In this document: piece after piece, positions 10,756 through 46,790 of the stretch
Layout of the letters: each line of letters opens with the position of its first letter
Numbering within the stretch: position 1 is the first letter of the stretch
From: Candidatus Adlerbacteria bacterium
GTDB lineage: Bacteria > Patescibacteriota > Minisyncoccia > Phycocordibacterales > SBAW01
Assembly (NCBI GenBank): GCA_963749085.1
Contig: CAVVLG010000002.1
Location: 229,033 to 293,032 of the forward strand
Length of the DNA stretch: 64,000 nucleotides
Direction of reading: 5' to 3'
Program-made: the position numbers and the translations under genes
Notes under the pieces: generated by a model
Told to the model about the DNA's origin: nothing
What the model saw: only the letters and a program-made list of their open reading frames with translations
Database searches by the model: none

Positions 10756-12620
10756 GTCAGTAAGGCGTCATAGATGGCGAGCAACTTCGGAAGAATCTCA
10801 GGCCATCCAAAATAGGATCGCGCGTAGTGCGTGGAATACGAGCTCATCTTCTCTAAGTGGACATCGTCGTTAACGATCGTCGTGATGGCCCGTCGTACGC
10901 TTGATTCGGAGGGCTGATCGAGAAAATAGATGAGCTTCTCATCCAAGTGATAGCGCCGGTAGCCTGCATCATAGGTCGTGATAATGGGGAGTCCGGTTGC
11001 CATCGCTTCCTGTACGGACAGCGGAAACCCCTCCCCTTCGGAGGGCAGCACAAAAATATCTGCCGCCTGATAAATCTCGGCGACCACGGATTGCGGAAAC
11101 GGCCCAAGAAAAACGACGTTTTCACTACTTTGCCGTGGAGTTTCGTTTCCGACCAGTACAATCTGGTAATATTCGCTCTGCGCGGCGAGCAGTTTATCAA
11201 CTCCCTTTTTGGGCACAAATCGTCCCACAAAGAGAATGATCTTTTTGTGCGGGCTCAAATGATATTTCCTTCTCAGCGCTTGTTTGTGCTCTAGAGTGAC
11301 CGGATGAAACAAGGAGAGGTCTACGCCGTTTGAGAGCGCCTGCAGTTTACTGCGATGTATACCCCCGTTGAGTAAAAACAGCTCCACCCGGTCGTTGAGG
11401 GTGATAATGCGTGCGCTTAAACGGAAAATGATGGCGCCGGTCGTGGCATAGACGAGGCGCTGCATGGTCTTCACCAAGAGATTGGGATGCATGATCATTT
11501 CGACGTGCTGGGTTAAGACGATGGGTTTTTCACATACCCGTGCGCACAGTGCGGCAAGAAACGAGCTCATATAGAAGGCGTCGTGAATGTGTACAATATC
11601 GGCAGTCCTCGTCTGCCTGAAGAGTACGAGGAGAAACTGCGGCGAAAAGATCGGGAATGGTACGCCCCAGCGTTCAAAAATATTCCACGCGCCTACGCGT
11701 ATAATCGTCAAATTCTTTTGAAGACAATCCGGCCCCTCAGCGGCGATGCCGCTCGTCACGACGGTCACGCGGTGTCCGGCGGCGGAGAGCAACTCCGCCT
11801 GACTCTTGACGACAATTTCGAGCCCACCGACATGCGGCGGATAATAGCTCGAGACAATGAGAATGTTTTTAGTGCAGGAAGGAAGTCTGGGGGCTTCGGC
11901 ACGCTCTGGCCGCCAGAAGGTATTGCGCATGAGCATGAGCAGGATGCGGCTCCCGTCCTTCAGCGGATGCAAGTTCGATACGCTGCCGACCCGAGGATGA
12001 TAGCTGATGGGCACGCAATAAATCTCCTGCCCCAAACGCGCCATTTTGGTTATCATCTCCATCTCGATGGCAAAGCCGTCTGAGCGCAAGTGCGGGCGCA
12101 ACTCAGTCAGAGCTTCCCTTCTCCACGCGAAGTAGCCCGTGAGCACGTCGGTGACGTTCACACGATACAGCGAGCGCACCAGGTGTGAGAAAATCCAATT
12201 GCCTGCGCGGTTACACAACGTCATCGAGCCGTCATGAATGCGGCCGCCCAGCCGCGAGCCGAGCGCCACATCGCAAAAGCCCGAGTCCAGGAGCTCCAGC
12301 AAGCGCAAAATCTCCTCCGGCCGGTAGGTGTTGTCGCCGTCGAGCATCACGACGTAGTCGGTATCCTCCGTCACTGCCGCAAATCCGCGGCGCATCGCGT
12401 TGCCTTTGCCGCGGCGAGGTTCATCAATGACCCTCACCCCGTGTTGGCGTGCGATTCTCGCCGAGTCATCGGTTGAATTATTGTTGATGACGATGATGGT
12501 GAGGTCGTAGCCGTAGGTGCGCAACTTCTCTGTCGGGAAACTCCTGAGCACGGCCTCAAGGCTCTCCGCTTCGTTGAAGCAGGGGATAAGCGCGGTGACT
12601 TTTTTATTCGTGCGTTTCAT
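10752..12620 (-). CDS. fusion protein: GT2 (Dpm1/GtrB-like) N-terminal domain with a GT4 C-terminal domain
   Basis: N-terminus ALIPCFNEAESLEAV ... IIVINNNSTDDSARIA ... VMLDGDNTY (GT-A fold, DxD). C-terminus EGFPLSVQEAMATGLPIITT (GT4). Start at MKRTNKK (12620), which overlaps the upstream stop as ATGA. The stop overlaps the next start as ATGA. Confidence 0.7.
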   Translation of the reverse strand: MKRTNKKVTALIPCFNEAESLEAVLRSFPTEKLRTYGYDLTIIVINNNSTDDSARIARQHGVRVIDEPRRGKGNAMRRGFAAVTEDTDYVVMLDGDNTYRPEEILRLLELLDSGFCDVALGSRLGGRIHDGSMTLCNRAGNWIFSHLVRSLYRVNVTDVLTGYFAWRREALTELRPHLRSDGFAIEMEMITKMARLGQEIYCVPISYHPRVGSVSNLHPLKDGSRILLMLMRNTFWRPERAEAPRLPSCTKNILIVSSYYPPHVGGLEIVVKSQAELLSAAGHRVTVVTSGIAAEGPDCLQKNLTIIRVGAWNIFERWGVPFPIFSPQFLLVLFRQTRTADIVHIHDAFYMSSFLAALCARVCEKPIVLTQHVEMIMHPNLLVKTMQRLVYATTGAIIFRLSARIITLNDRVELFLLNGGIHRSKLQALSNGVDLSLFHPVTLEHKQALRRKYHLSPHKKIILFVGRFVPKKGVDKLLAAQSEYYQIVLVGNETPRQSSENVVFLGPFPQSVVAEIYQAADIFVLPSEGEGFPLSVQEAMATGLPIITTYDAGYRRYHLDEKLIYFLDQPSESSVRRAITTIVNDDVHLEKMSSYSTHYARSYFGWPEILPKLLAIYDALLT

Positions 12621-13075
12621 GGTTGTGTCGTCGTCGGCACATAAAAGTCGATGTGTTGCTGAAGCGTCGGCAAAAGAACGATAAACTCGCCTGGCTCCCA
12701 CGCGTAGCTCAGCACCGCTGCTTCACTGATGGTGCTCGAGGCATTGTCTGCAAGCGTGATGACTCCCTCATCGATGGTCGTGGTGCCAAGCGATCTCATG
12801 ACATAGACCAGGTAGGGGTAGGTCGTGGTCGTACCCTCAACGTTGTGGATGGTGAAGGAGAATGAAATAGTTGTGCCGTTGGTGACTTGCGAAGGATCTT
12901 GTGGATAGGTGTCGAAATATAACTCGGTGAAGGGCTCAGGCTCGGGAATAAGTTTAAGCGCATTGAGTTCGTTGTAGAGGGGCACGCGCGCAAGATACAG
13001 CAGCACGCACAATGCTATGCCACCGCCCAAAAGAAGAAGGATCGTCTTTGTCTTTTGCGTTGGGGAATCTGACAT
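12617..13075 (-). CDS. membrane-anchored hypothetical protein; first gene of the glycan operon
   Basis: Single N-terminal TM (ILLLLGGGIALCVLLYLA), then a Thr-rich extracytoplasmic region. Translationally coupled (ATGA) to the GT2::GT4 gene. Confidence 0.4.
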   Translation of the reverse strand: MSDSPTQKTKTILLLLGGGIALCVLLYLARVPLYNELNALKLIPEPEPFTELYFDTYPQDPSQVTNGTTISFSFTIHNVEGTTTTYPYLVYVMRSLGTTTIDEGVITLADNASSTISEAAVLSYAWEPGEFIVLLPTLQQHIDFYVPTTTQP

Positions 13076-21206: not shown

Positions 21207-21273
21207 GGGCAGGCAAATTACGGGTAACGCCCTGTGCCTTTAGTCTACAACGGTATTTTTGAGATTGGTTCTA

Positions 21274-22314
21274 GTGAATGGGAAGTCCTGTATCAACGCC
21301 GATAATAATCCTGTCGCCTTGTTCATTGACTTCAGGCACGACGTTCTTTAACACAACAGTGCTGGGTATTTTGTTTTCCGAGGCGATGTAGGGAAGCCCA
21401 AGGACATAGTTGTAAAAGTATTGCTCACTTTTATGTGGGTCGTTCTTGGCTTCGATAATCTTCTCTGCGCTTATCCACGGACACATCAACTGAGAAATAT
21501 GATAGCCTCGAAATGTACCGAGAGCGGTGGCGAGCCATTGGCCTTTTTTTCTCACATCATTTGATAGAGGCGCGAAACAATACTTGCATTGATAGTGTTT
21601 CGTCTCAAGATTGATTGACTTGGGCCACGCAAGTATCTGCTTCACTGTACAATGGGGGCAGGTAATAACCCATTCTTTCTTGTCGCTCTGCTGCCAATAA
21701 ATGTCCACCCCAAATCCAGCCACGGAAGGGTGAGACCAATACCATCTGCTTGCTTCGGGTTTAGCTTGTTGTCGCGTCTCCATGAGCTTGACGTTCTCCC
21801 AGTTAGAGAAATCTAACTCGTCGTGTGCGTTTATATCTGAGGGATACATCATCGCTTGCGTGGGAATCTGCGTTCCACGGAAGCGTATCATCGAATCCCC
21901 CACCGCCTTATGTGACATGGTGTCTGAATTCTGCACCCATTTCTGTAGAGGAGGATTTTGGGCTATGAGCCGGTTAAATGTTCCGGACACCATCTCGTAC
22001 GTCGAATCCTCAGTAGGAAGGGTATACACTATCTGTTTCTTTTGATGGTAGGCGATGTAGAGGCACTTCAATATCTGCGCCGTCGTCATGCCGACCTGAG
22101 GTGGTTTGAGCACCACCATTAACGGGGAGAAGTCGTTGTAGATATCCTTTAGGAACTTGTGGTCGTCAAATTCAATAGGTTCTCCCACCTCATTCACGAG
22201 CGTAGATGCCCATAAGGACGGGTAACGACTGTATGCTTGCTCTATCTCCTCATCACTGAAGCTTGAGAAGTCTATCGGCGAGCTCTCTGATTTTTGGGGT
22301 ATACGTAATCTCAT
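21274..22314 (-). pseudogene. phage terminase large subunit, N-terminal (ATPase) fragment, ending at the IS insertion
   Basis: 347 aa with a Walker-A-like VLKPPQVGMTTAQIL, ending IIGVDTGLPIH. The stop codon (cta at 21271-21273) lies inside the IS right-end region. Confidence 0.6.
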
Positions 22315-22660
22315 GTTTTATAGTGAGCGCATGTTCTTTCACTTTCGCACCGTATTTCGCAGAGTTATGCTCGAGCCAATACTTAATCGCTGGCCAATGC
22401 TTGTCTTTGCTCAGTAGGATGAGTTGGGATTCGTTCATATCATTGATGAATTCGATCCCTTGCTTTATCGCCTCGACGGCCTGCCGCCTGAATACCTCAT
22501 CCTCCTGTAGCCAGCGGTAGTAGGTGGGACGCGATACCCCGGCTTTCTGGCAGGCGACCTGAATGATGGGCCACTCTTTGAGCGCATCGAGCATTTTTTG
22601 CTTATTCTCGATCATGCGCTCCTCAACGGAGGGGACTTCTTTTATTTCTTCTTCACTCAT
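22253..22660 (-). CDS. phage terminase small subunit-like HTH protein
   Basis: 135 aa with an HTH (ACQKAGVSRPTYYRWLQEDEVF). Immediately upstream of, and overlapping, the large terminase gene. Its start overlaps the stop of the ParB::MTase gene (ATGA). Confidence 0.5.
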   Translation of the reverse strand: MSEEEIKEVPSVEERMIENKQKMLDALKEWPIIQVACQKAGVSRPTYYRWLQEDEVFRRQAVEAIKQGIEFINDMNESQLILLSKDKHWPAIKYWLEHNSAKYGAKVKEHALTIKHEITYTPKIRELADRLLKLQ

Positions 22661-23934
22661 ACCTTCTTTGGAATGAGGCCAGTAAGCTGCGACCAGCGGT
22701 TGAGTATGACCGAGGCGTACAGGGGGGATTCCTCCATGACGTAGCAGCGCCGCTGCATCTTTATCGATGCTATGAGCGTGGAGCCGCTACCGCCGAATGG
22801 GTCGAGCACGAGATCCCCGCGCTTCGTGAGTACCTTGATATAGGGTATGAGGATATCAACTGGCTTTGACCTAATGCCCTGGTGGGATGCATGCCGGTCA
22901 TATGTCCCATGTTCGATAAAGTCGGTGGGCTGATTGTGCATGTCTTTTTCGTAGCCTCCCCAGTACGGCTTCCCCTGCATAGCGTGGAGCGCGCTCTCAT
23001 ACACATTCTGTAGAAGCTCATCTTCCCGAGCAGTGTTGAGGGACATCTTCACGTTGGAGGAGCCGACCATGGCGATAGCACGCGGAGCAGAGAATTTGTA
23101 ATTGGCGGAGTAGCTCGGCCCGCGATTTCCCACATGCCACACCAGCATATTTTTGACTTGCCAGTACTTCTCCATCTCATCCGAAATGTGGCGAATGTGT
23201 TGCCAGTCCTCAAAGACGATGATATGAAAGTCGTCCTTGGCGGCTGCCTGCACATGTGCCATCCATCGCGGCGTGCTCGAGACGACATTGCTTTTCTTTC
23301 TCCTGCCGTGGAGCAGATAGGGCGGAGACGTGAGACACAGATCCACTTTATTTTTGCCTATGAGTGTGCGCATATGGGCCCCGATGGTGGGGTCTCCGCA
23401 TACGAGACGGCTGCCGCTCAAGTCATACATGTCGCCTTTTTCGACGTTGAGGCGTTTGTGATCAAGATTCGCTACTTCTTCCTCCAGATCAAACGGCTTG
23501 GGTGTTATGTCGATAGTGAAGATATCGTCAAGCTCTTCACTAGTGAACCCGGCGGCGGAGAGGAATGTCTCGTCGAATTTTTCGAGCAGCGTTTCGTCCC
23601 ATGCGCCCCTATTTTTGTTGAGGCGAAGATTTAATTGTTTCTCCCGCTCTAAGTCGGGGATGTTGATATATAGCACCGGCACGATTTCAATACCGAGTTG
23701 CTTGATAATGGAGAGGCGAAAGTGGCCGCCGATGACGACGCCCTTTCGCTCCGGCGCACTATTCACGATCAACGGTTCGACGATGCCGAAGCTCGTGATG
23801 CTTTCTTTTAATTGGTTCTCCGCTTTCTTGTCCCACGTTCTTGGGTTATATTCTGCGGGTTTGAGGGTAGCGATTGAGACATGCTCAATGCGCAGGCCCC
23901 CAGGAACCTTTGTATTTGTCATGGTACTGAACAA
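22657..23934 (-). CDS. fusion protein: ParB-like nuclease N-terminal domain with DNA N6-adenine/N4-cytosine methyltransferase
   Basis: N-terminus IEHVSIATLKPAEYNPRTWDKKAENQLKESITSFGIVEPLIVN (ParB/Srx fold). MTase motif IV CLTSPPYLL and motif I VLDPFGGSGSTLIA (beta-class order: IV before I). This architecture is common in phage packaging modules. Confidence 0.75.
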   Translation of the reverse strand: MFSTMTNTKVPGGLRIEHVSIATLKPAEYNPRTWDKKAENQLKESITSFGIVEPLIVNSAPERKGVVIGGHFRLSIIKQLGIEIVPVLYINIPDLEREKQLNLRLNKNRGAWDETLLEKFDETFLSAAGFTSEELDDIFTIDITPKPFDLEEEVANLDHKRLNVEKGDMYDLSGSRLVCGDPTIGAHMRTLIGKNKVDLCLTSPPYLLHGRRKKSNVVSSTPRWMAHVQAAAKDDFHIIVFEDWQHIRHISDEMEKYWQVKNMLVWHVGNRGPSYSANYKFSAPRAIAMVGSSNVKMSLNTAREDELLQNVYESALHAMQGKPYWGGYEKDMHNQPTDFIEHGTYDRHASHQGIRSKPVDILIPYIKVLTKRGDLVLDPFGGSGSTLIASIKMQRRCYVMEESPLYASVILNRWSQLTGLIPKKV

Positions 23935-34718: not shown

Positions 34719-34978
34719 AGACACCAGTATGCAAGGTTCTGAGGAAAAACAAAAGACCGTGCCGCTATGTAAAAGCTTTTTTGTCAACTCGACCAAAAAG
34801 GCTCCCGCAGAAGGCTTTTTTGGGGTGGAAATAAAACCCCATGTTAAGCCAAAAATCAAGTTCTCCGAGCCTTATTCCTAGTCCTTTTTGAGCGATGCCG
34901 TTGCCATTTTCAAAAAAAGTTTTCGTACCACTTATGCACAGTCAAGAAAAGTACCGCACCGTGGCGCCGGGGAGTATA

Positions 34979-37966
34979 ATGAAATTTCCGAGCGATATGG
35001 CGATCACCCAAAAAATAAAGAAGCGGAACGGGGAGATTGTCGATTTTTTTCCTGAGAAAATAACCATAGCTGTGCAAAAAGCGTTCGCGGCGGTGTTGGG
35101 CGACGCACACGAGCCTGATGCAGCTGACATCACACGCGTTGTCGCCGAAGCGATCGATGTGAAATTCGGCACCACGGCGTTCATGCCGTCGGTCGAAGAG
35201 ATCCAGGATTTGGTCGAAACCGCGCTCATGGAGCGGGGCTATTTTACCGTCGCGAAATCCTACATCATCTACCGCTACGAGCACGAGAAAATACGTGAGG
35301 AGAAAAAGCAAGAGGTCGCTGAAAAAATCGCTGAATCAAGCCTTTTTATCGTCAAACGCGACGGCTCCCGCGAGCGCTTCAGCGAAGTGAAACTCACCCG
35401 CACCTTTCTGCGTGCGGCGGAGGGGCTCGAGCGCTTTATAGACGTGCCCTCAATCATTGGGCGAGTGCGCCAGGAACTCTACGAAGGTATAAAATCAACC
35501 GATATACACGAAGTGCTTATCATGGTCGTGAGATCGATGATCGAGCGGGATCCCGCTCACTCCACCATCGCCGCGCGGCTGCTGCTTCAGTCGATGTACA
35601 CGCAGGTATTCGGCCAATTCGATTATGCGCGCGTGGAAGATGCGCACCGCGCCGCATTCATTGAGACCATTGAGCGCGGCGTCGATATCGGGCAGTTCGA
35701 TCCGGAACTTCTCACATTCGATGTACCGGCGCTTGCCGAGGTGCTTCAGATAGAGCGCGACCGTGAATTCAAGTATCTGGGACTACAGACCCTCCAGAGC
35801 AACTATCTCTCCAAGGAGCACGGCACGAAAAAGCTCCTCGAGACCCCGCAGATATTCTGGATGCGCGCCGCCATGGGCATGGCGCTCGCGGAGAAAACGT
35901 CGGAAGAAAGACAGCGCTACGCCGTAGAGTTCTACGAGGTCATGTCCTCCATGTACTACACGCCCTCCTCCCCGACGCTCTACCACTCCGGCCTCATGAA
36001 ACCTCAGCTTTCATCCTGTTTCCTCTCGACCGTGCCGGATGATCTTCATGCCATCTTTGCGGAATTTGGCGACGGGGCGCAGTTGCTCAAATATGCCGGG
36101 GGGCTCGGCACCGACTGGACGCCGGTGCGCGCCACAGGCTCTCTCATCAAAACGACCGGGGTTGAAAGCCAAGGCGTCATACCGTTTCTCAAAATCGCCA
36201 ACGACGTCACTATTTCCATTAACCGCTCGGGACGCCGCAGGGGTGCCCAGGCCGTGTATCTTGAATACTGGCATGCTGACATTGAAGATTTCATAGAACT
36301 CAGAAAGAACACGGGAGACGAGCGCAGGCGCGCCCACGACCTCAATACCGCCGTGTGGATCCCCGATCTCTTTATGAAACGCCTCGCCGAGGACGGCTAT
36401 TGGACCCTCTTCTCCCCTTCGGACGTCCCTGAGCTCCACGAGCTCTACGGCAAGAGGTTTGAGGAGATGTACCGTCACTACGAGAAGCTCGCGGACGCGG
36501 GACAAATACCCATGTTTAAGAAAATCCGCGCAGCGGAGCTCTGGAAAAAACACCTTACTATGCTCTTTGAGACCGGGCACCCCTGGGTCACGTGGAAAGA
36601 TCCCAGCAATATACGCTCGCCGCAAGACCACGTGGGTGTGGTGCATTCGAGCAATCTGTGCACGGAGATAACGCTCAATTCTTCAGCGACTGAAACCGCC
36701 GTGTGCAACTTGGGTTCTATAAACATGGCAAAGTTCGTCGAGAACGGCAAGTTCAATCGCGACACGGTAGCCCGCGTGGTACCGGTCGCCATGCGCATGC
36801 TCGACAATGTCATAGACATCAACTACTACCCAACTGAGAAAACCCGCAACTCCAACATGCGCCACCGCCCGGTGGGATTGGGACTCCGGGGCCTCCAAGA
36901 CGCGCTCTATAAAGCAGGACTTAATTTCCACTCGGAAGAAGCGGTGCGCTTTTCGGACGAGACTATGGAGACCATTGCCTACCACGCCATACTCTCCTCC
37001 GCACTCCTCGCTAAGGAGCGCGGATCCTACGAGACTTACAAAGGCAGCAAATGGAATCGCGGGATATTCCCACAGGACACGATAGCGCTTCTGGAGCAGG
37101 AGCGCGGGATGATCATAGACGTGCCGCGTCACGAGACACTCAATTGGCAGCTGGTGCGCGAATCGGTGAGGCAGTGGGGCATGCGCAATTCCAACTGCAT
37201 GGCCAACGCGCCGACCGCCTCGACCGCCAACATCGCCGGCTGCTATCCCACCATTGAACCCATTTACAAAAACCTCTATGTGAAGAGCAACATGGCGGGC
37301 GATTTTATGGTGGTCAACGAATTTTTGGTTGATGATCTCAAAAAATTGGGGCTCTGGAGCGAGGAGATGCTGGAGAAAATTAAATACCATGACGGCTCGG
37401 TGCAACAGATATACGAAATCCCGCCTGCCATTCGAGAAAAGTACAAGGAGGTCTTTGAGATAGATGCTCAGTGGCTCGTCAAAGCAGCGGCCTATCGCGG
37501 CCGCTGGATAGACCAGAGTCAGTCGCTCAACATATTCTACGGCGGCACCTCTGGCAAAGCGCTTTCGGAAATCTATCAATACGCCTGGAGCTTGGGGCTT
37601 AAAACCACCTACTATCTGCGCACCATGGGGGCGTCCCGCATCGAGAAATCGACCGTCAATATGGGCAAATTTGGCAGCACCTCCAAGCAAGACGAGGGGG
37701 TAGGCGCCATGGTCACACCCTCAAGCGTCCTTATCGAAGAGACCGTCATGGTCGCTTCAGTTTCCTCACCCTTAAGCGACGTTGTACTCTCCGCTATGGA
37801 GGTGGCCCCCCGCGAGACCCTTCCGGTAATGCCGATACAACTGCACGAGCAAACCGCGTACGAAGCACCGAGGACTGAAGTGTCAGACAGTATGTCTTCC
37901 TTTGAACTTCCCAAGAACCCTAAAATCGAGATAATCGGCGAAGCGTGCGAATCCTGCTCCGCTTAG
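34979..37966 (+). CDS. nrdA: ribonucleoside-diphosphate reductase large (alpha) subunit, class I-like, with two N-terminal ATP-cone domains
   Basis: ATP cones ITQKIKKRNGEIVDFFPEKITIAVQKAF and FIVKRDGSRERFSEVKLTRTF. Catalytic SNLCTEI. NAPTASTANI. Tyr-Tyr dyad in GLKTTYYLRTM (class I radical-transfer YY). C-terminal redox Cys pair GEACESCSA. GGAG RBS before MKFPSDM. Confidence 0.8.
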   Translation: MKFPSDMAITQKIKKRNGEIVDFFPEKITIAVQKAFAAVLGDAHEPDAADITRVVAEAIDVKFGTTAFMPSVEEIQDLVETALMERGYFTVAKSYIIYRYEHEKIREEKKQEVAEKIAESSLFIVKRDGSRERFSEVKLTRTFLRAAEGLERFIDVPSIIGRVRQELYEGIKSTDIHEVLIMVVRSMIERDPAHSTIAARLLLQSMYTQVFGQFDYARVEDAHRAAFIETIERGVDIGQFDPELLTFDVPALAEVLQIERDREFKYLGLQTLQSNYLSKEHGTKKLLETPQIFWMRAAMGMALAEKTSEERQRYAVEFYEVMSSMYYTPSSPTLYHSGLMKPQLSSCFLSTVPDDLHAIFAEFGDGAQLLKYAGGLGTDWTPVRATGSLIKTTGVESQGVIPFLKIANDVTISINRSGRRRGAQAVYLEYWHADIEDFIELRKNTGDERRRAHDLNTAVWIPDLFMKRLAEDGYWTLFSPSDVPELHELYGKRFEEMYRHYEKLADAGQIPMFKKIRAAELWKKHLTMLFETGHPWVTWKDPSNIRSPQDHVGVVHSSNLCTEITLNSSATETAVCNLGSINMAKFVENGKFNRDTVARVVPVAMRMLDNVIDINYYPTEKTRNSNMRHRPVGLGLRGLQDALYKAGLNFHSEEAVRFSDETMETIAYHAILSSALLAKERGSYETYKGSKWNRGIFPQDTIALLEQERGMIIDVPRHETLNWQLVRESVRQWGMRNSNCMANAPTASTANIAGCYPTIEPIYKNLYVKSNMAGDFMVVNEFLVDDLKKLGLWSEEMLEKIKYHDGSVQQIYEIPPAIREKYKEVFEIDAQWLVKAAAYRGRWIDQSQSLNIFYGGTSGKALSEIYQYAWSLGLKTTYYLRTMGASRIEKSTVNMGKFGSTSKQDEGVGAMVTPSSVLIEETVMVASVSSPLSDVVLSAMEVAPRETLPVMPIQLHEQTAYEAPRTEVSDSMSSFELPKNPKIEIIGEACESCSA

Positions 37967-39047: not shown

Positions 39048-39841
39048 CCATGGAAAAACTTTTCATCAAAAATCGGGAGGAACAAAAGGTTTCTGTCCTT
39101 GTAGAAAAATCTGAACCCCAACAAGGCCTCGCCTTCGTAATGCACGGGCTCGGTGGATTCAAAGAGCAGGACCATATCCACACTATTGCCGAAGCTTTTA
39201 AGAGTAAGGGTTTTACTGTTGTGCGTTTCGATACGACGAACACCTTTGGCGAGAGCGACGGAAAGTACGAGGATGCAACTATCACCAATTACTACGATGA
39301 TTTGGAGGATGTAATTGGGTGGGCGCAGAGTCAGGATTGGTATCAGGAACCTTTCGCTCTTTCAGGTCATAGTCTCGGCGGAATCTGTACAGCTTTGTAT
39401 GCTGAAAAATATCCGAATAAGGTTTTGGCCCTTGCCCCCATATCGCCCGTTGTCTCTGGCAGGCTGAGCGTCGAAGCGCATAAACGGGACGATCCTGAAG
39501 AATTTGAGAAATGGGAGAAGACTGGCTGGCAGGAATCAGAAAGTAAATCGAAGCCAGGAATTATCAAACGTCTCCCTTGGTCACATATCGTTGATAGGCT
39601 GAGATATGACTTACTGCCTCAAGTCTCAAAACTTACCATGCCTGTTCTGCTCATCGTCGGGGAAAATGATACCTCTACACCACCTGACCAAGTAAAACTG
39701 CTCTACGAGGCTCTACCCGGCTCAAAGGAATTCCATATACTTAAAGATGCCCCTCACACGTTTAGGGCACCAAAACATCTTGAAGACATAAGAGATATCT
39801 TTTTGAGGTGGATAGATACCTTTATGAAGAAACAAGTATGA
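39044..39841 (+). CDS. alpha/beta-hydrolase-fold esterase
   Basis: Nucleophile elbow LSGHSLGG. HGLGG oxyanion-region motif. C-terminal Asp/His region (DTSTPPD…PHTF). Confidence 0.65.
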   Translation: MTMEKLFIKNREEQKVSVLVEKSEPQQGLAFVMHGLGGFKEQDHIHTIAEAFKSKGFTVVRFDTTNTFGESDGKYEDATITNYYDDLEDVIGWAQSQDWYQEPFALSGHSLGGICTALYAEKYPNKVLALAPISPVVSGRLSVEAHKRDDPEEFEKWEKTGWQESESKSKPGIIKRLPWSHIVDRLRYDLLPQVSKLTMPVLLIVGENDTSTPPDQVKLLYEALPGSKEFHILKDAPHTFRAPKHLEDIRDIFLRWIDTFMKKQV

Positions 39842-40290
39842 CAAAGGAAGATATTGAAAAGACAGTTGAATATATTGCGGCGCTCGACTACGCTATCAGG
39901 AGGGGCATCCCCCATGGCGGCTACTGCCCGAAAGGGCGGAGGTCGGAGAGCGGCAGAATTTCGGACAAGTACAACTTGACCGAGACCTCGTCGAGCAACT
40001 ACCCACAACGCACGGCAATGAACGTGCAGCACTCGGGTGGAACTCTGATTATCACGCGGGGTACACCGAGCGGCGGCACTAAGCTGACAATCAACAACTG
40101 CCGAGAGCGAAATAAGCCGTGGTTCATTGTAGATCTCCAGCACAAACTCAAAGTGCAGGAGTTCGCCGACTGGATACGGCAGTACAACATTCGCATCCTG
40201 AACATTGCCGGACCCCGCGAGAGTTCTATATCCGGCATCGGCAAGCACACGTTACAAGCACTCGAAGAGCTGTTTGTGGCACTCACATAG
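39838..40290 (+). CDS. SLOG-superfamily protein, 'putative molybdenum carrier'/YpsA-like
   Basis: IPHGGYCPKGRRSESGRISDKYNLTETSSSNYPQRTAMNVQHSGGTLIITRG…GGTKLTINNCRERNKPWFIVDL closely follows the MoCo-carrier-like pattern (G.CPKGR.AEDG.IP..Y.L.E.....Y..RT..NV.DSDGTLI…G..SGGT.LT…A…KP…VDL). ATGA-coupled to the hydrolase gene. Confidence 0.55.
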   Translation: MTKEDIEKTVEYIAALDYAIRRGIPHGGYCPKGRRSESGRISDKYNLTETSSSNYPQRTAMNVQHSGGTLIITRGTPSGGTKLTINNCRERNKPWFIVDLQHKLKVQEFADWIRQYNIRILNIAGPRESSISGIGKHTLQALEELFVALT

Positions 40291-40322
40291 AAAGGGTTCG
40301 TTGATGGTGCTCTACATTATGG

Positions 40323-40428: not shown

Positions 40429-40456
40429 TTGACATTTTGCTCATATATGCTACACT
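40429..40456 (+). promoter_or_regulatory. sigma70-type promoter (TTGACA-16-TACACT) for the 40495.. operon
   Basis: TTGACA at 40429-40434, a 16-nt spacer, TACACT at 40451-40456. The GAGGAGG RBS is at 40484-40490. Confidence 0.5.
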
Positions 40457-40494
40457 AACTAACAGTTGTCTTAACCCATAGCGAGGAGGTGGCC

Positions 40495-40911
40495 ATGAGC
40501 CGCTTTGATGACGGATATACCGGCCATCTCTTCGAAAGAGAGATGCTCGGCCAATGTCTTGCTCCCTACCGCGGGTATCTGCGATGGCGCGAGGCGGCGC
40601 AGTTGGTTCGCAAGAGCCAGCCGCGTGCGAAGGCTCCAGTTGCTGCTCGTCTCGAAAGAGAAGTGAGCGCGCAGGTTGGAGTTTCGGTGATGTTCTTCAC
40701 CGCCGTCGGGAGCGCCCTCGACGTAATGCACGGGTGTGACGGGTTCTTTGAATTCCGCGGCGTAGTCGTGACGATCGACATCACCATGAATCCCCACAAG
40801 GATTCTGGTAAGGCCGATATCGTCATCGCTCGCGAAGAGGTCGAAAACCTCCCCGTTCTCGCTGGCCGTATAGCACGCGAGTTGCGCTCGAAACTGTCGA
40901 GGAGGATGTGA
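40495..40911 (+). CDS. hypothetical protein (138 aa)
   Basis: RBS GAGGAGG. No recognisable domain. Stop overlaps the next start (ATGA at 40908). Confidence 0.4.
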   Translation: MSRFDDGYTGHLFEREMLGQCLAPYRGYLRWREAAQLVRKSQPRAKAPVAARLEREVSAQVGVSVMFFTAVGSALDVMHGCDGFFEFRGVVVTIDITMNPHKDSGKADIVIAREEVENLPVLAGRIARELRSKLSRRM

Positions 40912-41159
40912 TGAGTGTCAAAACCATCCCGTCGCCCCGACAGTTTTTCTTCGAGTGTGCAAAATGCGGCACCTATCCGGTCTCGGAAAAAACCCTTCGG
41001 AGGTTCATTACTCCGAAATTGAGAAAGGAGCTGGACAAGAAGTTAGCTAGTGGTGCCGGTGGCGCCGTTCTGAAATTTCTCAACGGCTGTCCTGCCTGCA
41101 CCCCCGATAATCCTCATGCGAAGGTGGAGCTGTCGGCCCTCAAGCCGATCGTCCACTAG
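40908..41159 (+). CDS. small zinc-ribbon protein (83 aa)
   Basis: Two Cys pairs: CAKCG (N-terminal) and CPAC (C-terminal). Confidence 0.4.
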   Translation: MMSVKTIPSPRQFFFECAKCGTYPVSEKTLRRFITPKLRKELDKKLASGAGGAVLKFLNGCPACTPDNPHAKVELSALKPIVH

Positions 41160-41399
41160 CGATGTTCCAAACCGCCACAGTTGTGGCATGGAGGAGCCAG
41201 TGGAATGATTAGCGAGGCACCCAGCGGATCAAACCCCCGCCTGCCTCCGGACCCGGACCCCGACATTAGCGCATAGCGCGTGTCGGGGTCTTTATATTAT
41301 TCGGGGGCGTTTTTTGTAACCTAGACAAGACGAATTATTTGTACTATTATCTCAGTTAGAATTCACCTCTTGTTCATCAACAACCGGAAGGAGGGCACC

Positions 41400-42386
41400 A
41401 TGCCCGCACTGCATCCTGCACTGAACGAAAATCCGATTGAGTTCAAATACACCGGTAGCGAGAAGCTGCTTCGAGGCCTCAAATCTACGAAGAAGGATTT
41501 TGAAGCAGGGACAGAAGCACTACTCCGACGTGCTGGCTTCGGCGGCATCTTTGCCGTAACAGTCTCCAACACAGTCAAGGGTGGCGCCCATAACAAGGGT
41601 CTGCGTCTAGGGGCGCCAGTCGAGCCACGACGATCTGTCGAAATCCGTTGGCAACAAGGGAGCAATGACGAACGTTTCGGCATGCTTCTAGGTGCCCCGC
41701 ATGGGATGGATGTCTTCGAATTCCATACTCGTCTTGACCGAGCATACAAGGAGTTAGACGATGACTCAAACGTAAAAAAAGTGAGCGGAGCGAAGCCTCA
41801 CCAAACCCCTGCCCCACCTGCGCCGCAGACAGATGAGCTCAAAGAAGCGAGGGCAAGGATCGAGCGGTGCATGCAGAAGTTTTGTGAGGCTGCACCCGAC
41901 CTTGGTCTTATCGACCGCGAGCAATGTTACGAAATCCTCCGACAACTTGGCGAAGATGCCGATCCGGCTTTCTCCGCATTCGTTAATGCGAAATACATCG
42001 TCGCTCTCGAAGGAAGCGAGCAGATGTTTCGCGTGGGTTTCGAGTGGCAGGAGAAGTTTCGCGACAAAAAGTCGGACACGCCATTATCGACGCCGTCCGT
42101 CCTGGAGCCGAAGGAACCTATTCCCACTAAGAGTCAGGTTGATCTCTTAGCCGAACTCAAGGGCCTGACCGAGAAGATGCGGCAGGCAGAGACTTTCCGC
42201 AGTAATCTCGCGAGCGTCGTTACGGAGATCGATGAGATCGAGAATCTCATCGCCTCCAAGACAGCTCGTTTGGAAGAGCTCCAAGCTAGACGGGCTCAAG
42301 CGGAAGAATTTCTCACTAGTCCTGAGTTCAAAGAGGCCGAAGAGATGCTTGCCGCCATCCAAAACTTGCTGGGATCTACCCGGTAA
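41400..42386 (+). CDS. hypothetical protein with a C-terminal coiled coil (328 aa)
   Basis: GGAAGGAGGG RBS before MPALHP. The C-terminal about 90 aa are strongly heptad-like (LAELKGLTEKMRQAETFRSNLASVVTEIDEIENLIASKTARLEELQARRAQAEEFL). Confidence 0.45.
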   Translation: MPALHPALNENPIEFKYTGSEKLLRGLKSTKKDFEAGTEALLRRAGFGGIFAVTVSNTVKGGAHNKGLRLGAPVEPRRSVEIRWQQGSNDERFGMLLGAPHGMDVFEFHTRLDRAYKELDDDSNVKKVSGAKPHQTPAPPAPQTDELKEARARIERCMQKFCEAAPDLGLIDREQCYEILRQLGEDADPAFSAFVNAKYIVALEGSEQMFRVGFEWQEKFRDKKSDTPLSTPSVLEPKEPIPTKSQVDLLAELKGLTEKMRQAETFRSNLASVVTEIDEIENLIASKTARLEELQARRAQAEEFLTSPEFKEAEEMLAAIQNLLGSTR

Positions 42387-42395
42387 CACCTTAAC

Positions 42396-42426
42396 GCCGT
42401 CTGCGTCATGCAGACGGCTTTTCTCT
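42396..42426 (+). terminator. rho-independent terminator
   Basis: GCCGTCTGCG-tcat-GCAGACGGC, then TTTTCTCTTG. Confidence 0.6.
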
Positions 42427-42500
42427 TGACAAAACGCCAAAATAGTATTTACTACTGACCAGTCTCAGCTTGTACCTTATCAGCCTGAACGGAGGTTTCA

Positions 42501-43109
42501 ATGGCAACTCTGCACATGCCGGATACGCCTGCCTTCCTAGAGGCAAAGCGGGTCCTGGCATCTGAACTCTCGGACGAAATACGCCTCTGGAGCCTCTCGA
42601 CTATGATTGAGGAGCTCCAGAAGAGGATACAAACAGCATCGTCGAGCAAACATCGTATTCGCGAGTTCTCGAGGCATTGCCTCGGGCTACACGGCGAACA
42701 ATTCAGGCGTGTGCGCGAATGGTTGAAAAATCCTTCGACGCTCACCACTGAAGACGTCTGCTTGGTGCTCCGCGCTCTGAAAGAAGGGCGCAATGGCATG
42801 ATGATTCCACCGAGTCCTCCTCGCCAAACGAAGTCGCCAAGCACCAACCGTAAGGGCGTGAACCGAAAACTTGTCGGACACGCGATTACGATGCTTAACT
42901 CGCTTAACATCCTATTCAATGAAGCAGGCATCCAACCAAAGGACGCCTTCGACGGAGATCGGATGCAAGTACAAAGCGCGATGGAGGAAATTTGCAAACG
43001 CTTCGGCGTCACGGCACAGTTCTCCGACCCGAGCGCGGCACGCAATCAACCCGTGACGAGAGACGATCTCGCCACGATCGGACTACGAAAGAAGGAGAAG
43101 AGACGATGA
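42501..43109 (+). CDS. hypothetical protein (202 aa)
   Basis: AACGGAGG RBS. Stop overlaps the next start (ATGA at 43106). Confidence 0.4.
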   Translation: MATLHMPDTPAFLEAKRVLASELSDEIRLWSLSTMIEELQKRIQTASSSKHRIREFSRHCLGLHGEQFRRVREWLKNPSTLTTEDVCLVLRALKEGRNGMMIPPSPPRQTKSPSTNRKGVNRKLVGHAITMLNSLNILFNEAGIQPKDAFDGDRMQVQSAMEEICKRFGVTAQFSDPSAARNQPVTRDDLATIGLRKKEKRR

Positions 43110-44635
43110 GTCAGATCCTGTGGCTTATGGCCACCGCGATCCACATGGTGGAGAATCTGGCTGGCGGTCTCTACGAGAGCGTCGGCCAGCGCCTGATGGA
43201 GTTGGTTCGCAACGGTCTCGTTGCGAGCATGCCGGATCCCAATACGTGGGAGCCGAAACGAGCGAGAATCGAAATCTCGCTGTTCCCCAATCATCCGCTC
43301 GCCCCCAAGGGATGTCCGGCACTTGTCGTGCTTGACCATGGGAGTGGGATGACCGATGCGGGATTGCAACGCTACTTCAACTGGCTCGGCACTCCGCTGA
43401 AAGAGTTGAGGAAGAACGCCAACGGATCCTTCCATGGAGCTTCTCAAAAAGGCATCGGGCGGCTCGCCGCCTTAGGTCTCAACGAGAACTGTCTCCAAGA
43501 GGACTATGAAGTTCGCGTCAAGCACGGCTACTATTTGCTGTCTCGCACGCAAGCGGACGGCGATGTGCGATTCGTGCCGGTGATCCCAGAGATGGCGGAG
43601 AAGCAAGGGTTTGAAATCAATCGTTTCATCTCCTCGACCGCCACCGAAATGGGCCCCCTCAAAGGTCTCAAGGGATCTTTCACTGCTGTAATCGTCCCGA
43701 CGCCGATCTTCAAATCGCATCAGGAGATCTACGACGCGATAAAGTGGTTCTTACCGCGTGAGCAGGACAAGATGTTCTCGCTTGTGATTGGGGGTAAGGT
43801 CTACGGGCCTCCACCGCTTGAGGGTGAGATCAACGTCACTTCCCAAGATGGCCGTTACCGCGCCCGACTTGGAGCGGCAGAAAACGAGCATAGCGATGGC
43901 GTATGGCTCTGTGACGAAGTGACCGGATTCCGTGTCGCCAGTTGCCAGAAGCTTGGACGTCTGTTGCCTGACCCGCTGTGGTTCCCCGATCTCGTGGGCG
44001 ATATCTTTGCACCGGGACTGCTCCGTCATCAAAACACGGCACGCAGCACCCTCAACAAGGAGTTCACCCGCAAGAGCAACAAGGAGTGGCAGCGGCTTAT
44101 GATGTTTCTCATCAGCCAGGTTGCTCCGATGGCGAAGAAACTCATCGAACGGGACGCGATCTCGGGAGATGCTGCCGAGACACTCGACGAGGTGGTGGAG
44201 ATGATCCACAGCTTATACGGTGTCCCGGAGGAGAAGGAGAAGGACAAACATCCAAATGGTCCGACTCCATCGACTCCGCCTCAACCGCCGCATACCCCGG
44301 GTAAAACCGGAGGGAATCGTGGCAATAAAGGCAGTGGCACGCCGTATCGGCGCTACGTCTCCATCAAGGTCCGTAACGAGACTTTCCTTCTCTATCGCGG
44401 GCAGTCATTGGATCCGTACGTCTACGCCGAAGTCAGCGCCAATAATCCAAAGCAGATCATCGTGAATGTTCGCGGCGGATACCGGGCGTTGCCTGACGGC
44501 AAACAGGCACGGCGGGAGCATTGTCTCATGCAGCTCCTTTCGGCAATCGGACGAAGCAAATTCTCGATGGACCCCCGTCAGGCAATGTGCTTCACCAACG
44601 AAGTGAGGGCCGAATTTCTCAAGAAGAAAGCCTAA
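43106..44635 (+). CDS. GHKL-superfamily (Bergerat-fold, HATPase_c-like) ATPase-domain protein (509 aa)
   Basis: N-box ELVRNGLVA (E…N). G1 box ALVVLDHGSGMTDAGL (D-x-G-x-G-M). G2-like ASQKGIGRLAALGL. The C-terminal about 250 aa have no recognised domain. A Pro-rich segment PNGPTPSTPPQPPHTPGKTGGNRGNKGSGTP. Confidence 0.5.
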   Translation: MSQILWLMATAIHMVENLAGGLYESVGQRLMELVRNGLVASMPDPNTWEPKRARIEISLFPNHPLAPKGCPALVVLDHGSGMTDAGLQRYFNWLGTPLKELRKNANGSFHGASQKGIGRLAALGLNENCLQEDYEVRVKHGYYLLSRTQADGDVRFVPVIPEMAEKQGFEINRFISSTATEMGPLKGLKGSFTAVIVPTPIFKSHQEIYDAIKWFLPREQDKMFSLVIGGKVYGPPPLEGEINVTSQDGRYRARLGAAENEHSDGVWLCDEVTGFRVASCQKLGRLLPDPLWFPDLVGDIFAPGLLRHQNTARSTLNKEFTRKSNKEWQRLMMFLISQVAPMAKKLIERDAISGDAAETLDEVVEMIHSLYGVPEEKEKDKHPNGPTPSTPPQPPHTPGKTGGNRGNKGSGTPYRRYVSIKVRNETFLLYRGQSLDPYVYAEVSANNPKQIIVNVRGGYRALPDGKQARREHCLMQLLSAIGRSKFSMDPRQAMCFTNEVRAEFLKKKA

Positions 44636-44646
44636 ACTAAAAAAAT

Positions 44647-44682
44647 CCCCCGATCCGCGCAAGCGGGTCGGGGGTTCTTTCT
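44647..44682. terminator. bidirectional rho-independent terminator
   Basis: A-run, then CCCCCGATCCGC-gcaa-GCGGGTCGGGGG, then TTCTTTCTT. Lies between convergent genes. Confidence 0.6.
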
Positions 44683-44692
44683 TACTGTGACT

Positions 44693-45298
44693 TCAACGGA
44701 TGTTAAAGTTTTCACCGATGATTCCCTTCGGCAGACCCTCCTGAACGAGCTGTACCGCAGCTCGATACGAAACGAGTCGCGAAACCTTACGATCGTTGTC
44801 GCTGACGGCCTCCGTCATCACCTCGATGGTTTTGTCGAGTGAGGCGAGAGCACGATCAAGCTCGGTCTTTTCTTTCTTGTTCGCTTCGGTGTCGCCGACC
44901 TCATGCTTGAGCATTTGATCGACAGTCTCGAGACGATTACGTTTGGCATCGCGCTCGTTGAGCAACGTCTCTTGAGCGCGAGCGACTTCGTCGCGGAGCT
45001 TACCGCGCCGAAGGAGCTCGGTCTCGATATCCACAAGAGATACCAAGTGCCCCACTGGTCCTGCGACTTGCGGTGCAGAAAGGAATTCGACCAGGTTGTC
45101 GAAATTTTTGATAAGTGTCTTTTCGTCCTGGCCATAGCCGATGCTTTTGACCATCGCGAGAATGCGCTCAATAAGAGGATCCGTACGACGGTCGAGCATC
45201 TGAAGTTCGAGGCACGCCTGCAGTTGTCCTTCGACGTACTGCGCGGACTGGACGATCGCCTTTTCGTTTCGAAGTTCAACCACAGGGGTTGCAGTCAT
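44693..45298 (-). CDS. hypothetical coiled-coil protein (201 aa)
   Basis: Largely alpha-helical, Glu/Leu/Arg-rich. No domain recognised. Confidence 0.4.
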   Translation of the reverse strand: MTATPVVELRNEKAIVQSAQYVEGQLQACLELQMLDRRTDPLIERILAMVKSIGYGQDEKTLIKNFDNLVEFLSAPQVAGPVGHLVSLVDIETELLRRGKLRDEVARAQETLLNERDAKRNRLETVDQMLKHEVGDTEANKKEKTELDRALASLDKTIEVMTEAVSDNDRKVSRLVSYRAAVQLVQEGLPKGIIGENFNIR

Positions 45299-45355
45299 GA
45301 TTTTCTCCCGGTTCTAGCTGTTAATTAGATTACATAATTCCATTGTCATGTCAAC

Positions 45356-45384
45356 TTGACAAAAGTAAAGATTGCGATTATGGT
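45356..45384 (+). promoter_or_regulatory. sigma70-type promoter TTGACA-17-TATGGT
   Basis: TTGACA at 45356-45361, a 17-nt spacer, TATGGT at 45379-45384. The GAAGGAGAAAGAGG RBS precedes the ATG at 45427. Confidence 0.55.
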
Positions 45385-45426
45385 GCCAACAGACGACGTT
45401 TCTATCACACATGAAGGAGAAAGAGG

Positions 45427-46740
45427 ATGATTACTCCGAAAGAGCGAGTCATCCGCCTCTTTCTTGGTTTTTTGTCCCACTATGTGCCTTTGTCGCAGGC
45501 TCGCCTTGCGACCCTCGGCGGATATGGAATCGAAGCCAAGATTTGGGCGGAGTCGGGCGTCCCTCCCGATCACGGTTGGCTCATTGAGCTTAACCGCGAG
45601 CGAGGGGGTAGACTCATCAAGAGCCACCGATACAAGAGCCATAACCGCTTGGGAACCTTCCACCGGATCCTGAACGGCTATGGCGAAGACGGTCACGTCG
45701 ACGGATTCCATTTGGATCTGTGCGGGACCATGAGCGACCGGGTCATCGACGATTTCTCGCCAGTGCTTCCGCTGGTGCTACAAAGCACCGGCAAGTGCCT
45801 CGCGATCACCGTCGCTGATCAGCGTCGCAACGTGGCTCTCGAGCAGTGGCCTGAGATTCAGTTGCGCGGCAAGCAGCTGTTTGGGAGACAATCGACTGGA
45901 ATGCTCCAGGAGATTGAATCACAGCAGCGGCGTATTCCAGTCAAACGGAATTTGCCCGCGTTCATCAAGGCCTTCGATCCCACTAAAGCGGCCAAGCGCG
46001 AGTTTGGCCTGTTGGTGGAAATCGCCGAGATACTGCGGAACCACGCTTCATGGACATCTGCTCAGATCGAGCGGTACGTCTATGTGAGTCGGTACCAAGG
46101 CCGTCCGTTTCGTATGCGGACGTACTTCTTTCACTTCGAGCAAGGCAATCCCAAGAATTCGGGGTCTGTATTTGCGCGAATGTGGATCACGAGTCCGCTG
46201 CACTTCAACGGCGGAGAGAAGTTTGTCGAAATCAAAGCGCCCTCCACAGTGGTGGAGCGCACAGCACCAACGAAAGGAACAATAATGTCACGACTCGGCA
46301 ATGTTGCACGAGCGCTCGGCGGCGATGAGCTGGCCGAGTACGAAATGCTCGTGCAAAACAACGAACAGCTGCAGCAGATCCTGCAGACGGTTGCCTCTGT
46401 GAACGGGCTCGGCATGGCGCCGAAGACCGCGCAGAGTTCTACGACCCCCGCTCAGAAGGGAGCTCGTAGAAATTGGGATGATCTCTCCCAACAGGAGCAG
46501 ATCACCTGGCTGCTCAAGGCCTTGGAACTCAAGGCTAAGGGCAATGGCTCCTGGGATAACGGACAGTGGAAGAATATTCTCAAACAGGACTTCGGCCATT
46601 ACTCCGCCGGGCTCGGCCGCAGCTTGCGGGCCGCACTGGCTCGCACGAACGGCAAATTCCGCGCCAACTTCGTGACGCGGATCAAGAGCGCCTTCGGAAA
46701 GGATTTCCACCTGTACCTCGACCGCTTGTCGAAACTGTAG
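45427..46740 (+). CDS. hypothetical protein (437 aa); N-terminal region possibly Rossmann/methyltransferase-like
   Basis: LATLGGYGIEAKIW is faintly like MTase motif I and GFHLDLCGT is faintly like motif IV; unverified. The C-terminal about 150 aa are Gln/Ala-rich. Confidence 0.4.
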   Translation: MITPKERVIRLFLGFLSHYVPLSQARLATLGGYGIEAKIWAESGVPPDHGWLIELNRERGGRLIKSHRYKSHNRLGTFHRILNGYGEDGHVDGFHLDLCGTMSDRVIDDFSPVLPLVLQSTGKCLAITVADQRRNVALEQWPEIQLRGKQLFGRQSTGMLQEIESQQRRIPVKRNLPAFIKAFDPTKAAKREFGLLVEIAEILRNHASWTSAQIERYVYVSRYQGRPFRMRTYFFHFEQGNPKNSGSVFARMWITSPLHFNGGEKFVEIKAPSTVVERTAPTKGTIMSRLGNVARALGGDELAEYEMLVQNNEQLQQILQTVASVNGLGMAPKTAQSSTTPAQKGARRNWDDLSQQEQITWLLKALELKAKGNGSWDNGQWKNILKQDFGHYSAGLGRSLRAALARTNGKFRANFVTRIKSAFGKDFHLYLDRLSKL

Positions 46741-46755
46741 AAGCGCTTAGGCGCC

Positions 46756-46790
46756 AGACCCTCCGATTGTGATCGGAGGGTCTATTTTTC
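46756..46790. terminator. bidirectional rho-independent terminator between 45427..46740 and ppdK
   Basis: AGACCCTCCGAT-tgtg-ATCGGAGGGTCT, then ATTTTTC. Confidence 0.65.

Follow-up and report, generated by a model that had tools for sequence, protein, structure and literature searches.

Analysis of a 64,000 nucleotide stretch of DNA from Candidatus Adlerbacteria bacterium (GenBank assembly GCA_963749085.1, contig CAVVLG010000002.1, positions 229,033 to 293,032 of the forward strand), referred to below as the window, revealed a conserved module of five genes, here named C, D, E, F and G, located at 41400-46740. Gene E encodes a predicted GHKL + S5 ATPase of paraMORC-like type, and gene G a predicted methyltransferase-fold protein which is the obligate partner of that ATPase. 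Among all matches carrying a source name, the module is restricted to Patescibacteria. We tentatively propose that it is a new paraMORC-type, methylation-linked and ATP-driven clamp on nucleic acid, most likely DNA, for which a conflict or epigenetic role seems the most plausible.

An earlier reading of the same DNA, made from the sequence alone (the original prediction), had described seven uncharacterised open reading frames (ORFs), here A to G, as a candidate novel system matching none that could be named. All seven ORFs are present; their proteins all stay below the curated thresholds of Pfam and NCBIfam and give no significant match to PHROGs or PADLOC, so that no clear match to a known pathway emerged and no name could be given to the system by any of these libraries. 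Four of the five module proteins have no curated model and belong to no described family, and no paper describing the module was found in the literature.

The GHKL ATPase and its methyltransferase-fold partner

Gene E (43106-44635, + strand) encodes a protein of 509 amino acids (aa), for which a GHKL ATPase of the MORC/MutL/Hsp90 type had been suggested, and this assignment was borne out. In 35 sequences of the family, E32 and N36 of motif I (E-x3-N), the presumed catalytic Glu and Mg-binding Asn, D77, G79 and G81 of motif II (D-x-G-x-G), K115, G118 and R119 of the lid/G2 box (S-Q-K-G-I-G-R), and Q309 and R313 of an H-Q-N-T-A-R loop are invariant, and the structure prediction places the motifs on a Bergerat fold. 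By analogy with the QTK loop of GyrB, we infer that H-Q-N-T-A-R is the sensor loop of the transducer domain. E scores 23.2 bits against Pfam HATPase_c_3, for which the cut-off is 25, and several of its homologues carry a precomputed PF13589 match. A search of PDB with the family profile returned only the N-domains of Hsp90 and TRAP1, and these weakly (E 0.003). At the level of structure, about 280-300 residues, S5 domain included, align to the ATPase modules of MORC2, MORC3 and SMCHD1, which are the closest structures to E. E is predicted from its motifs and model to be an ATP-binding GHKL + S5 module of the MORC/SMCHD1/MutL type, with its ATP-binding motifs intact.

The S5 segment of E, G-F-R-V-A-S-C-Q-K-L-G, does not keep the MORC motif G-h-x-h-h-p-x-x-R-h-l, and the position of the defining Arg is occupied by K, R, Q, A, G, D or V within the E family. 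Because this Arg is variable, E is classed by its sequence as paraMORC-like and not as a strict MORC protein. Past the ATPase module, E continues with two long helices, a Pro/Gly-rich disordered linker (378-412) and a folded basic C-terminal domain (417-509; isoelectric point (pI) 10.1), in which R416, A441, N454, G457, Y459, E471 and H472 are conserved.

Other assignments of E were rejected. The endonuclease motif of MutL, DQHA(x)2E(x)4E, was not seen in the C-terminal domain of E on reading by eye, and no MutS gene was seen in the neighbourhoods with Pfam assignments. A Pfam HSP90 match together with Hsp90 middle and C-terminal domains, as expected of Hsp90/HtpG, was not found. A chemotaxis-like reading, with a GHKL kinase, a coiled coil and a CheR-like methylase, was discarded as well, E having an S5 transducer domain and no phosphotransfer domain.

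Structure prediction of the 437 aa basic protein encoded by gene G (45427-46740, + strand) revealed a partner which the original prediction had not recognised. In the model (predicted local distance difference test (pLDDT) 89.4), residues 1-270 have the strand order of a class I methyltransferase, seven-stranded and Rossmann-like with the strand 6-7 hairpin included, and residues 289-437 form a helical, basic C-terminal domain. Since G has a predicted methyltransferase fold, the reading of the locus shifts from a GHKL ATPase with coiled coils to a GHKL ATPase with a methyltransferase-fold protein. Two independent structure-comparison methods gave Trm1 as the top structural match of G; the next matches were mostly RNA methyltransferases (RlmCD, TrmN, Trm14, RlmO, RsmD-like and TlyA). 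In 46 sequences, G31, G32 and G34 of the glycine-rich motif I, which follows the strand at 27-30, and E54, at the end of the strand at 50-53, are invariant and fall at the expected S-adenosylmethionine (SAM) site; so are D92, H95, D97, G100 and T101, with an F-H-L-D-L-C-G-T loop at the motif IV position, and T128, D131 and R133. Trm1 has D-L-D-P-F-G-S/T where G has the H-L-D-L-C-G-T loop. One G homologue carries F in place of C in D-L-C-G-T, which fits the Trm1 alignment and speaks against a catalytic cysteine. Membership of the Trm1 family itself was rejected, G having no Pfam TRM match and D-L-C-G-T instead of D-P-F-G at motif IV, and the likeness being structural only.

Neither G nor its 46 homologues gave a profile match to Pfam TRM or to another methyltransferase or DNA-methylase family; the profile search of PDB with G returned nothing, and Pfam found nothing in the long G homologues. 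Of 90 homologues obtained by word index, none has a Pfam domain, and a HMMER search of 1.84 billion representatives (clusters at 50% identity) detected 215 proteins of the family at E <=1e-3. As judged from these searches, the G family is small and sharp-edged, without a sequence bridge to known methyltransferases. Fold and conserved residues taken together, G is very probably a SAM-binding enzyme of a new family.

Conservation, composition and distribution of the module

About 50 loci, 42 of them distinct, were gathered by exact-protein look-ups, a one-genome-per-species scan and a metagenome scan, and were annotated with family hidden Markov models (HMMs) built for this analysis. The gene order D(+), E(+), F(-), G(+) recurs almost everywhere among them, being found as D-E-F-G or close variants in L002, L005, L007, L009-L021, L023, L027-L037 and L041-L049. 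A GHKL gene lies beside G in all 26 distinct loci that have at least 3.5 kb of sequence upstream of G; in 25 of them it belongs to the E family, and in the other (L051) a 661 aa HATPase_c_3 protein (34.1 bits) lies by G. The pairing survives rearrangement, with G inverted in L003 of Uhrbacteria, G placed before E in L041 and E on the other strand in L049, and the linkage persists down to about 22-28% identity; in L023, for instance, G has 767 aa, and the genes ahead of it encode proteins of 488 aa (+), 510 aa (+) and 484 aa (-). G is an obligate partner of the GHKL ATPase. The pairwise identities of E and G are correlated (r = 0.87; 22 loci, 231 pairs), which fits co-inheritance; calculated without a control gene pair, this value could also be given by shared phylogeny alone. 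The co-occurrence that the original prediction had proposed to test was found in the form of a co-inherited system with synteny in about 40 loci.

The boundary drawn around seven genes did not hold. Gene A occurs in no other locus, and a B-like ORF was found only in L013, just 5′ of D; zinc-ribbon ORFs were not consistently present near the other loci. Therefore, we conclude that the conserved unit is 41400-46740 (C, D, E, F and G) and that A and B are local additions, of which B might be an occasional accessory.

Within the unit, D-E-F-G forms an invariant core, and a gene for a variable coiled-coil protein lies ahead of it. The window, L002 and L005 have a member of the C family in this slot 5′ of D; at least 10 other loci have one of an unrelated family, C′. 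The product of gene C (41400-42386, + strand; 328 aa, acidic) consists of a globular N-terminal part, then linkers, and finally a coiled coil that takes up about 80 aa at the C-terminus; C has no Pfam domain and no word-index homologue, and its relatives at the same position in L002 and L005 are 28-30% identical. The C′ proteins (261-289 aa) likewise have about 80 aa of coiled coil at their C-terminus. Comparison of C and C′ by hhalign, over the full length and over the C-terminal 90 aa, gave no significant match, and they are therefore treated as two families sharing only the coiled-coil end. C′ lies at 6381-7178 in L010, with equivalents in L009, L012, L014-L017, L019, L027, L029, L030 and L033; a conserved alpha/beta-looking N-terminal domain, 'MRxGILxQLP...VVLVVGP...LNR..WIR...', is followed by a low-complexity linker and the coiled coil, with no Pfam match.

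Gene D (42501-43109, + strand) encodes a basic protein of 202 aa (pI 10.1), whose family is located immediately 5′ of E in at least 19 loci; a 4-nt overlap of D with E is found in 9 of 15 loci, the window included. No match to D was found in Pfam or PDB. Hints of a helix-turn-helix (HTH) were too faint for this assignment to be claimed (PHROG 0.14; HTH_31 faint in L023; HTH_50 weak in L003). It is possible that D is a DNA-binding adaptor and conserved partner of E. Gene F (44693-45298, - strand), divergent from G, encodes an acidic helical/coiled-coil protein of 201 aa with only weak coiled-coil matches; its family keeps the same position and orientation in at least 20 loci, with lengths of 135-536 aa. 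The two coiled-coil proteins foreseen in the original prediction are C and F, both with weak coiled-coil Pfam matches and a heptad-periodic, Pro/Gly-free charged stretch (about 250-328 in C and 95-180 in F). The charge pattern of the module is marked, with strong basicity in D, in G and in the C-terminal domain of E, and with C and F as acidic coiled coils. Pfam gave nothing on the variant partners from distant loci. No integrase or known defence domain was found in the components, long distant-locus variants included.

The 56 detectable homologues of E all come from metagenomes or genome bins; those with a name are from Parcubacteria, Paceibacterota, Taylorbacteria, Uhrbacteria or 'Patescibacteria group', and further named loci are from Zambryskibacteria and 'Doudnabacteria'. 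Relatives of E were detected in 11 of 185,579 species genomes, a count limited by the search pattern; thousands of species of Patescibacteria have been sequenced. The flanking genes vary from locus to locus. In L009, an ORF of 413 aa between C′ and D (5820-7061, - strand) was read by eye as a transposase, with no library scan, and G is broken into several frames at 10244-11934, which means either that the module is decaying in this genome or that the assembly contains indel errors. Since the module is rare, shifts its genomic position between lineages, has an exchangeable 5′ partner and is disrupted by an insertion sequence (IS) in one locus, an accessory rather than essential role is suggested.

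Gene layout and neighbourhood in the window

The two genes ahead of the module are A (40495-40911, + strand), encoding a basic protein of 138 aa with no homologue found, and B (40908-41159, + strand), encoding a protein of 83 aa. The 4-Cys zinc ribbon assigned to B was confirmed in the form of two CxxC pairs (C17-x2-C20 and C61-x2-C64), with no Pfam model at threshold, but it does not travel with the system. The A-B pair has its own promoter-like site, at 40429 ahead of A, and on the 3′ side of B a long-loop G + C-rich hairpin with a T-run, which precedes another promoter-like site ahead of C (41322..41350, + strand; TAGACA, 17 nt, TATTAT; only a 10/12 match to the consensus). Of the two ATGA couplings described previously, the one between D and E stood, the overlap being ATGA at 43106-43109 preceded by a Shine-Dalgarno sequence; the A/B junction is GTGA, or TGATG if the ATG start of B is used.

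Terminator-like hairpins are present at all three positions where intrinsic terminators had been described: 3′ of C (42396..42418, + strand; 10 pairs, 7 of them G-C, then a T-run), between the convergent genes E and F (44647..44674; 12 pairs, 10 of them G-C), and 3′ of G (46756..46783, + strand; 12 pairs, then a T-run), the last being convergent to the ppdK terminator (46848-46821). The hairpin at 44647..44674 lies 12 nt past the E stop and 19 nt past the F stop, and probably terminates both genes. The divergent F/G intergenic region (45299..45426), an arrangement kept across related loci, has promoter-like sites on both strands, at 45356 (+) and at 45404, 45362 and 45324 (-). Thus the sigma70 promoters proposed before A and G have counterparts at 40429 and 45356, but promoter-like sites from the pattern scan are no commoner than in shuffled sequence (7 observed versus 5.7 +/- 2.4). 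Because a hairpin and a promoter-like site separate B from C, the region is read from its sequence as several separate transcription units (A-B; C; D-E; F; G) and not as a single promoter/terminator-bounded cluster or operon. Apart from two divergent -35 boxes, the cluster intergenic regions share only chance-level short matches, with no repeats or shared operators. The G + C content of the cluster fits that of the surrounding genome, and tRNA and Rfam scans found no tRNA gene or Rfam match in the window.

On the 5′ side, the cluster is preceded by genes for a ribonucleotide reductase (RNR), an EamA transporter, an alpha/beta hydrolase and a circularly permuted YpsA SLOG protein; ppdK lies on the 3′ side. 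The YpsA SLOG-family gene (PF12694, E 1.9e-45; 39808-40290, + strand), located immediately 5′ of the cluster, overlaps the end of the alpha/beta-hydrolase gene, is followed by a strong terminator at 40321, and adjoins the module in no other locus. The ribonucleotide reductase (34895-37966, + strand; 1023 aa) has two N-terminal stretches matching the ATP-cone and about 110 residues past its catalytic barrel domain. The cluster had been placed between a mobile-looking region and ppdK. The downstream neighbour is indeed ppdK, but the only mobile-looking genes lie 16 kb off, behind housekeeping genes, at 21271-23934 (- strand). One encodes a 347 aa protein carrying the gpA ATPase domain of phage terminase large subunits; the other, adjoining it, encodes 425 aa in which a ParB N-terminal domain is fused to an N6/N4 DNA methylase. 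This pair looks like a prophage remnant and is probably the mobile-looking region that was meant. At 8899-12701 (- strand), two large multidomain glycosyltransferases (GTs) both score weakly above threshold for the 'GT4-conflict' Pfam family, one composed of GT2, GT4 and GT1, and the other of a polysaccharide deacetylase, GT4 and GT1.

Known systems and possible roles of the module

Prokaryotic MORC and paraMORC genes located beside DNA methylase genes were read by Iyer, Abhiman and Aravind (2008; PMC2292703) as predicted restriction-modification systems. Like those systems (PMC2292703), the module combines a GHKL + S5 protein with intact ATP motifs and its own C-terminal extension with a methyltransferase-fold protein next door, and is sporadic in distribution. 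Unlike them, it has no superfamily II helicase and no restriction-endonuclease-fold, HNH, Vsr or PLD nuclease in any locus; G is no recognisable DNA cytosine or adenine methylase but represents a new Trm1-like family; the MORC S5 motif is not kept in E, with a variable Arg position; the partners are coiled-coil and small basic proteins; and the module is confined to Patescibacteria among the named matches. The module is therefore set apart from the systems of Iyer et al., the nucleases and helicases that define those being missing and the methyltransferase being of a different kind.

The eukaryotic proteins MORC2, MORC3 and SMCHD1 are likewise GHKL + S5 modules, dimerising in an ATP-dependent manner and tied to DNA-methylation-associated silencing, but E is only 13-18% identical to them, lacks CW, chromo-like and SMC-hinge domains, and has a MutL-like layout of ATPase module, disordered linker and small C-terminal domain. 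With MutL, E shares the GHKL + S5 N-terminal domain, the Pro-rich disordered linker and a C-terminal domain, and MutL of E. coli works in a methyl-directed pathway; however, E has no MutS or MutH neighbour and is structurally nearer to MORC. G in turn resembles Trm1, the tRNA guanine-26 N2,N2-dimethyltransferase, and other class I RNA methyltransferases in its glycine-rich motif I and the acidic residue after strand 2, but differs in having Leu-Cys for Pro-Phe in motif IV, a different C-terminal domain, and a gene that is always beside that of a GHKL ATPase. Mza and Hma, two PADLOC candidates for defence, are multigene loci in which an ATPase of GHKL or MutL-like type is encoded alongside a methyltransferase; the A-G proteins of the window match none of the HMMs for these two systems.

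Under the proposal that we tentatively favour, a methylation-linked clamp, E would dimerise upon ATP binding, like other GHKL + S5 ATPases, and would clamp or remodel a nucleic acid, most probably DNA, to which D and the basic C-terminal domain of E would recruit it. F and C (or C′) may be scaffolds or sensors. G would mark the same substrate using SAM, and the ATPase would act on unmarked (foreign) nucleic acid or read the mark. In a more specific form, which we regard as quite improbable, G, as a new Trm1-like enzyme, would put an unusual mark on the cell's own DNA (e.g. at guanine N2). The ATP-driven clamp, with D as its loader and F and C as its scaffolds, would then trap incoming DNA that lacks the mark and silence it without cutting, a prokaryotic and nuclease-free parallel to silencing by MORC/SMCHD1.

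Several observations weigh against the clamp proposal. It draws on DNA binding, complex formation, ATPase activity and methyltransfer, all four of them predictions. PADLOC-DB v2 gave no match with an E-value <0.05 for A to G, and the searches of the components and their variants turned up no nuclease, helicase or other effector domain. The original prediction had proposed to look for defence islands or integrases beside related loci; the flanks were found to be mostly housekeeping genes, such as those for tRNA synthetases, PGI, YchF, RNR and ppdK, with neither defence islands nor integrases, and no relatives of E and G were found on IMG/VR viral contigs. In structure, G comes nearest to methyltransferases of RNA and small molecules and not to DNA methylases, and its motif IV is without the Pro and aromatic residues of amino-methyltransferases, so that catalysis by G is not assured. 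The correlation between E and G identities, as noted, may reflect phylogeny only.

With housekeeping flanks and no effector found, a chromosome-organising role has to be weighed, in which the module would be a lineage-specific nucleoid-organising or gene-silencing machine and not an immune system: a MORC-like clamp would compact or bridge DNA of the cell itself, coiled-coil proteins would serve as its scaffolds and a basic protein as its adaptor, and a methyltransferase would set a regulatory mark. We consider this rather unlikely. The compaction of chromatin by the closest structures to E (MORC2, MORC3 and SMCHD1), the lack of viral or plasmid copies, the unremarkable G + C content and the seemingly joint inheritance of E and G all agree with it; the great rarity of the module (11 species matches; 215 G-family clusters), its different genomic position in every lineage, the exchange of C for C′, and the IS element and fragmented G in L009 (the fragmentation being a possible assembly error) do not. 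The resemblance of G to Trm1 and RNA methyltransferases likewise keeps in view an RNA-directed system, with G as a Trm1-like tRNA or rRNA methyltransferase (e.g. at guanine N2), E as an Hsp90/MORC-type remodeller of RNA or ribonucleoprotein, and D and F as adaptors; the best sequence alignments of the E N-terminal region, to the Hsp90 and TRAP1 chaperones, and the tRNA synthetase genes adjoining several loci point the same way. This reading seems clearly unlikely to us. G has no sequence-level tie to Pfam TRM or another methyltransferase family, GHKL + S5 ATPases of MORC-like structure are known to act on DNA and chromatin, none is known to have an RNA methyltransferase partner, and a sporadic distribution is unusual for translation-related functions.

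It is very improbable that the seven genes at 40429-46790, A and B included, form one bounded system. A and B are adjacent, overlap each other and lie on the same strand, and a B-like ORF precedes D in L013; however, among the other loci A is found in none and B only in that one, B and C are set apart by a T-run hairpin and an additional promoter-like site, and the region has at least four or five transcription units. Synteny largely refutes this reading.

Genomes of the Candidate Phyla Radiation (CPR) are only 0.5-1 Mb in size, yet some retain this 5.3-kb module, in which, with no nuclease present, a new methyltransferase-fold family is tied to an ATPase of the MORC type, the family behind eukaryotic epigenetic silencing. 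A housekeeping function would make the module a chromosome-organising machine specific to its lineage, in organisms not yet growable alone. If its role is immune or epigenetic, it would show how MORC-like clamps cooperate with methylation in prokaryotes, and could reveal a new nucleic-acid modification enzyme; were the nuclease-free silencing version true, these ultra-small bacteria would be using a new kind of immunity or epigenetic control.

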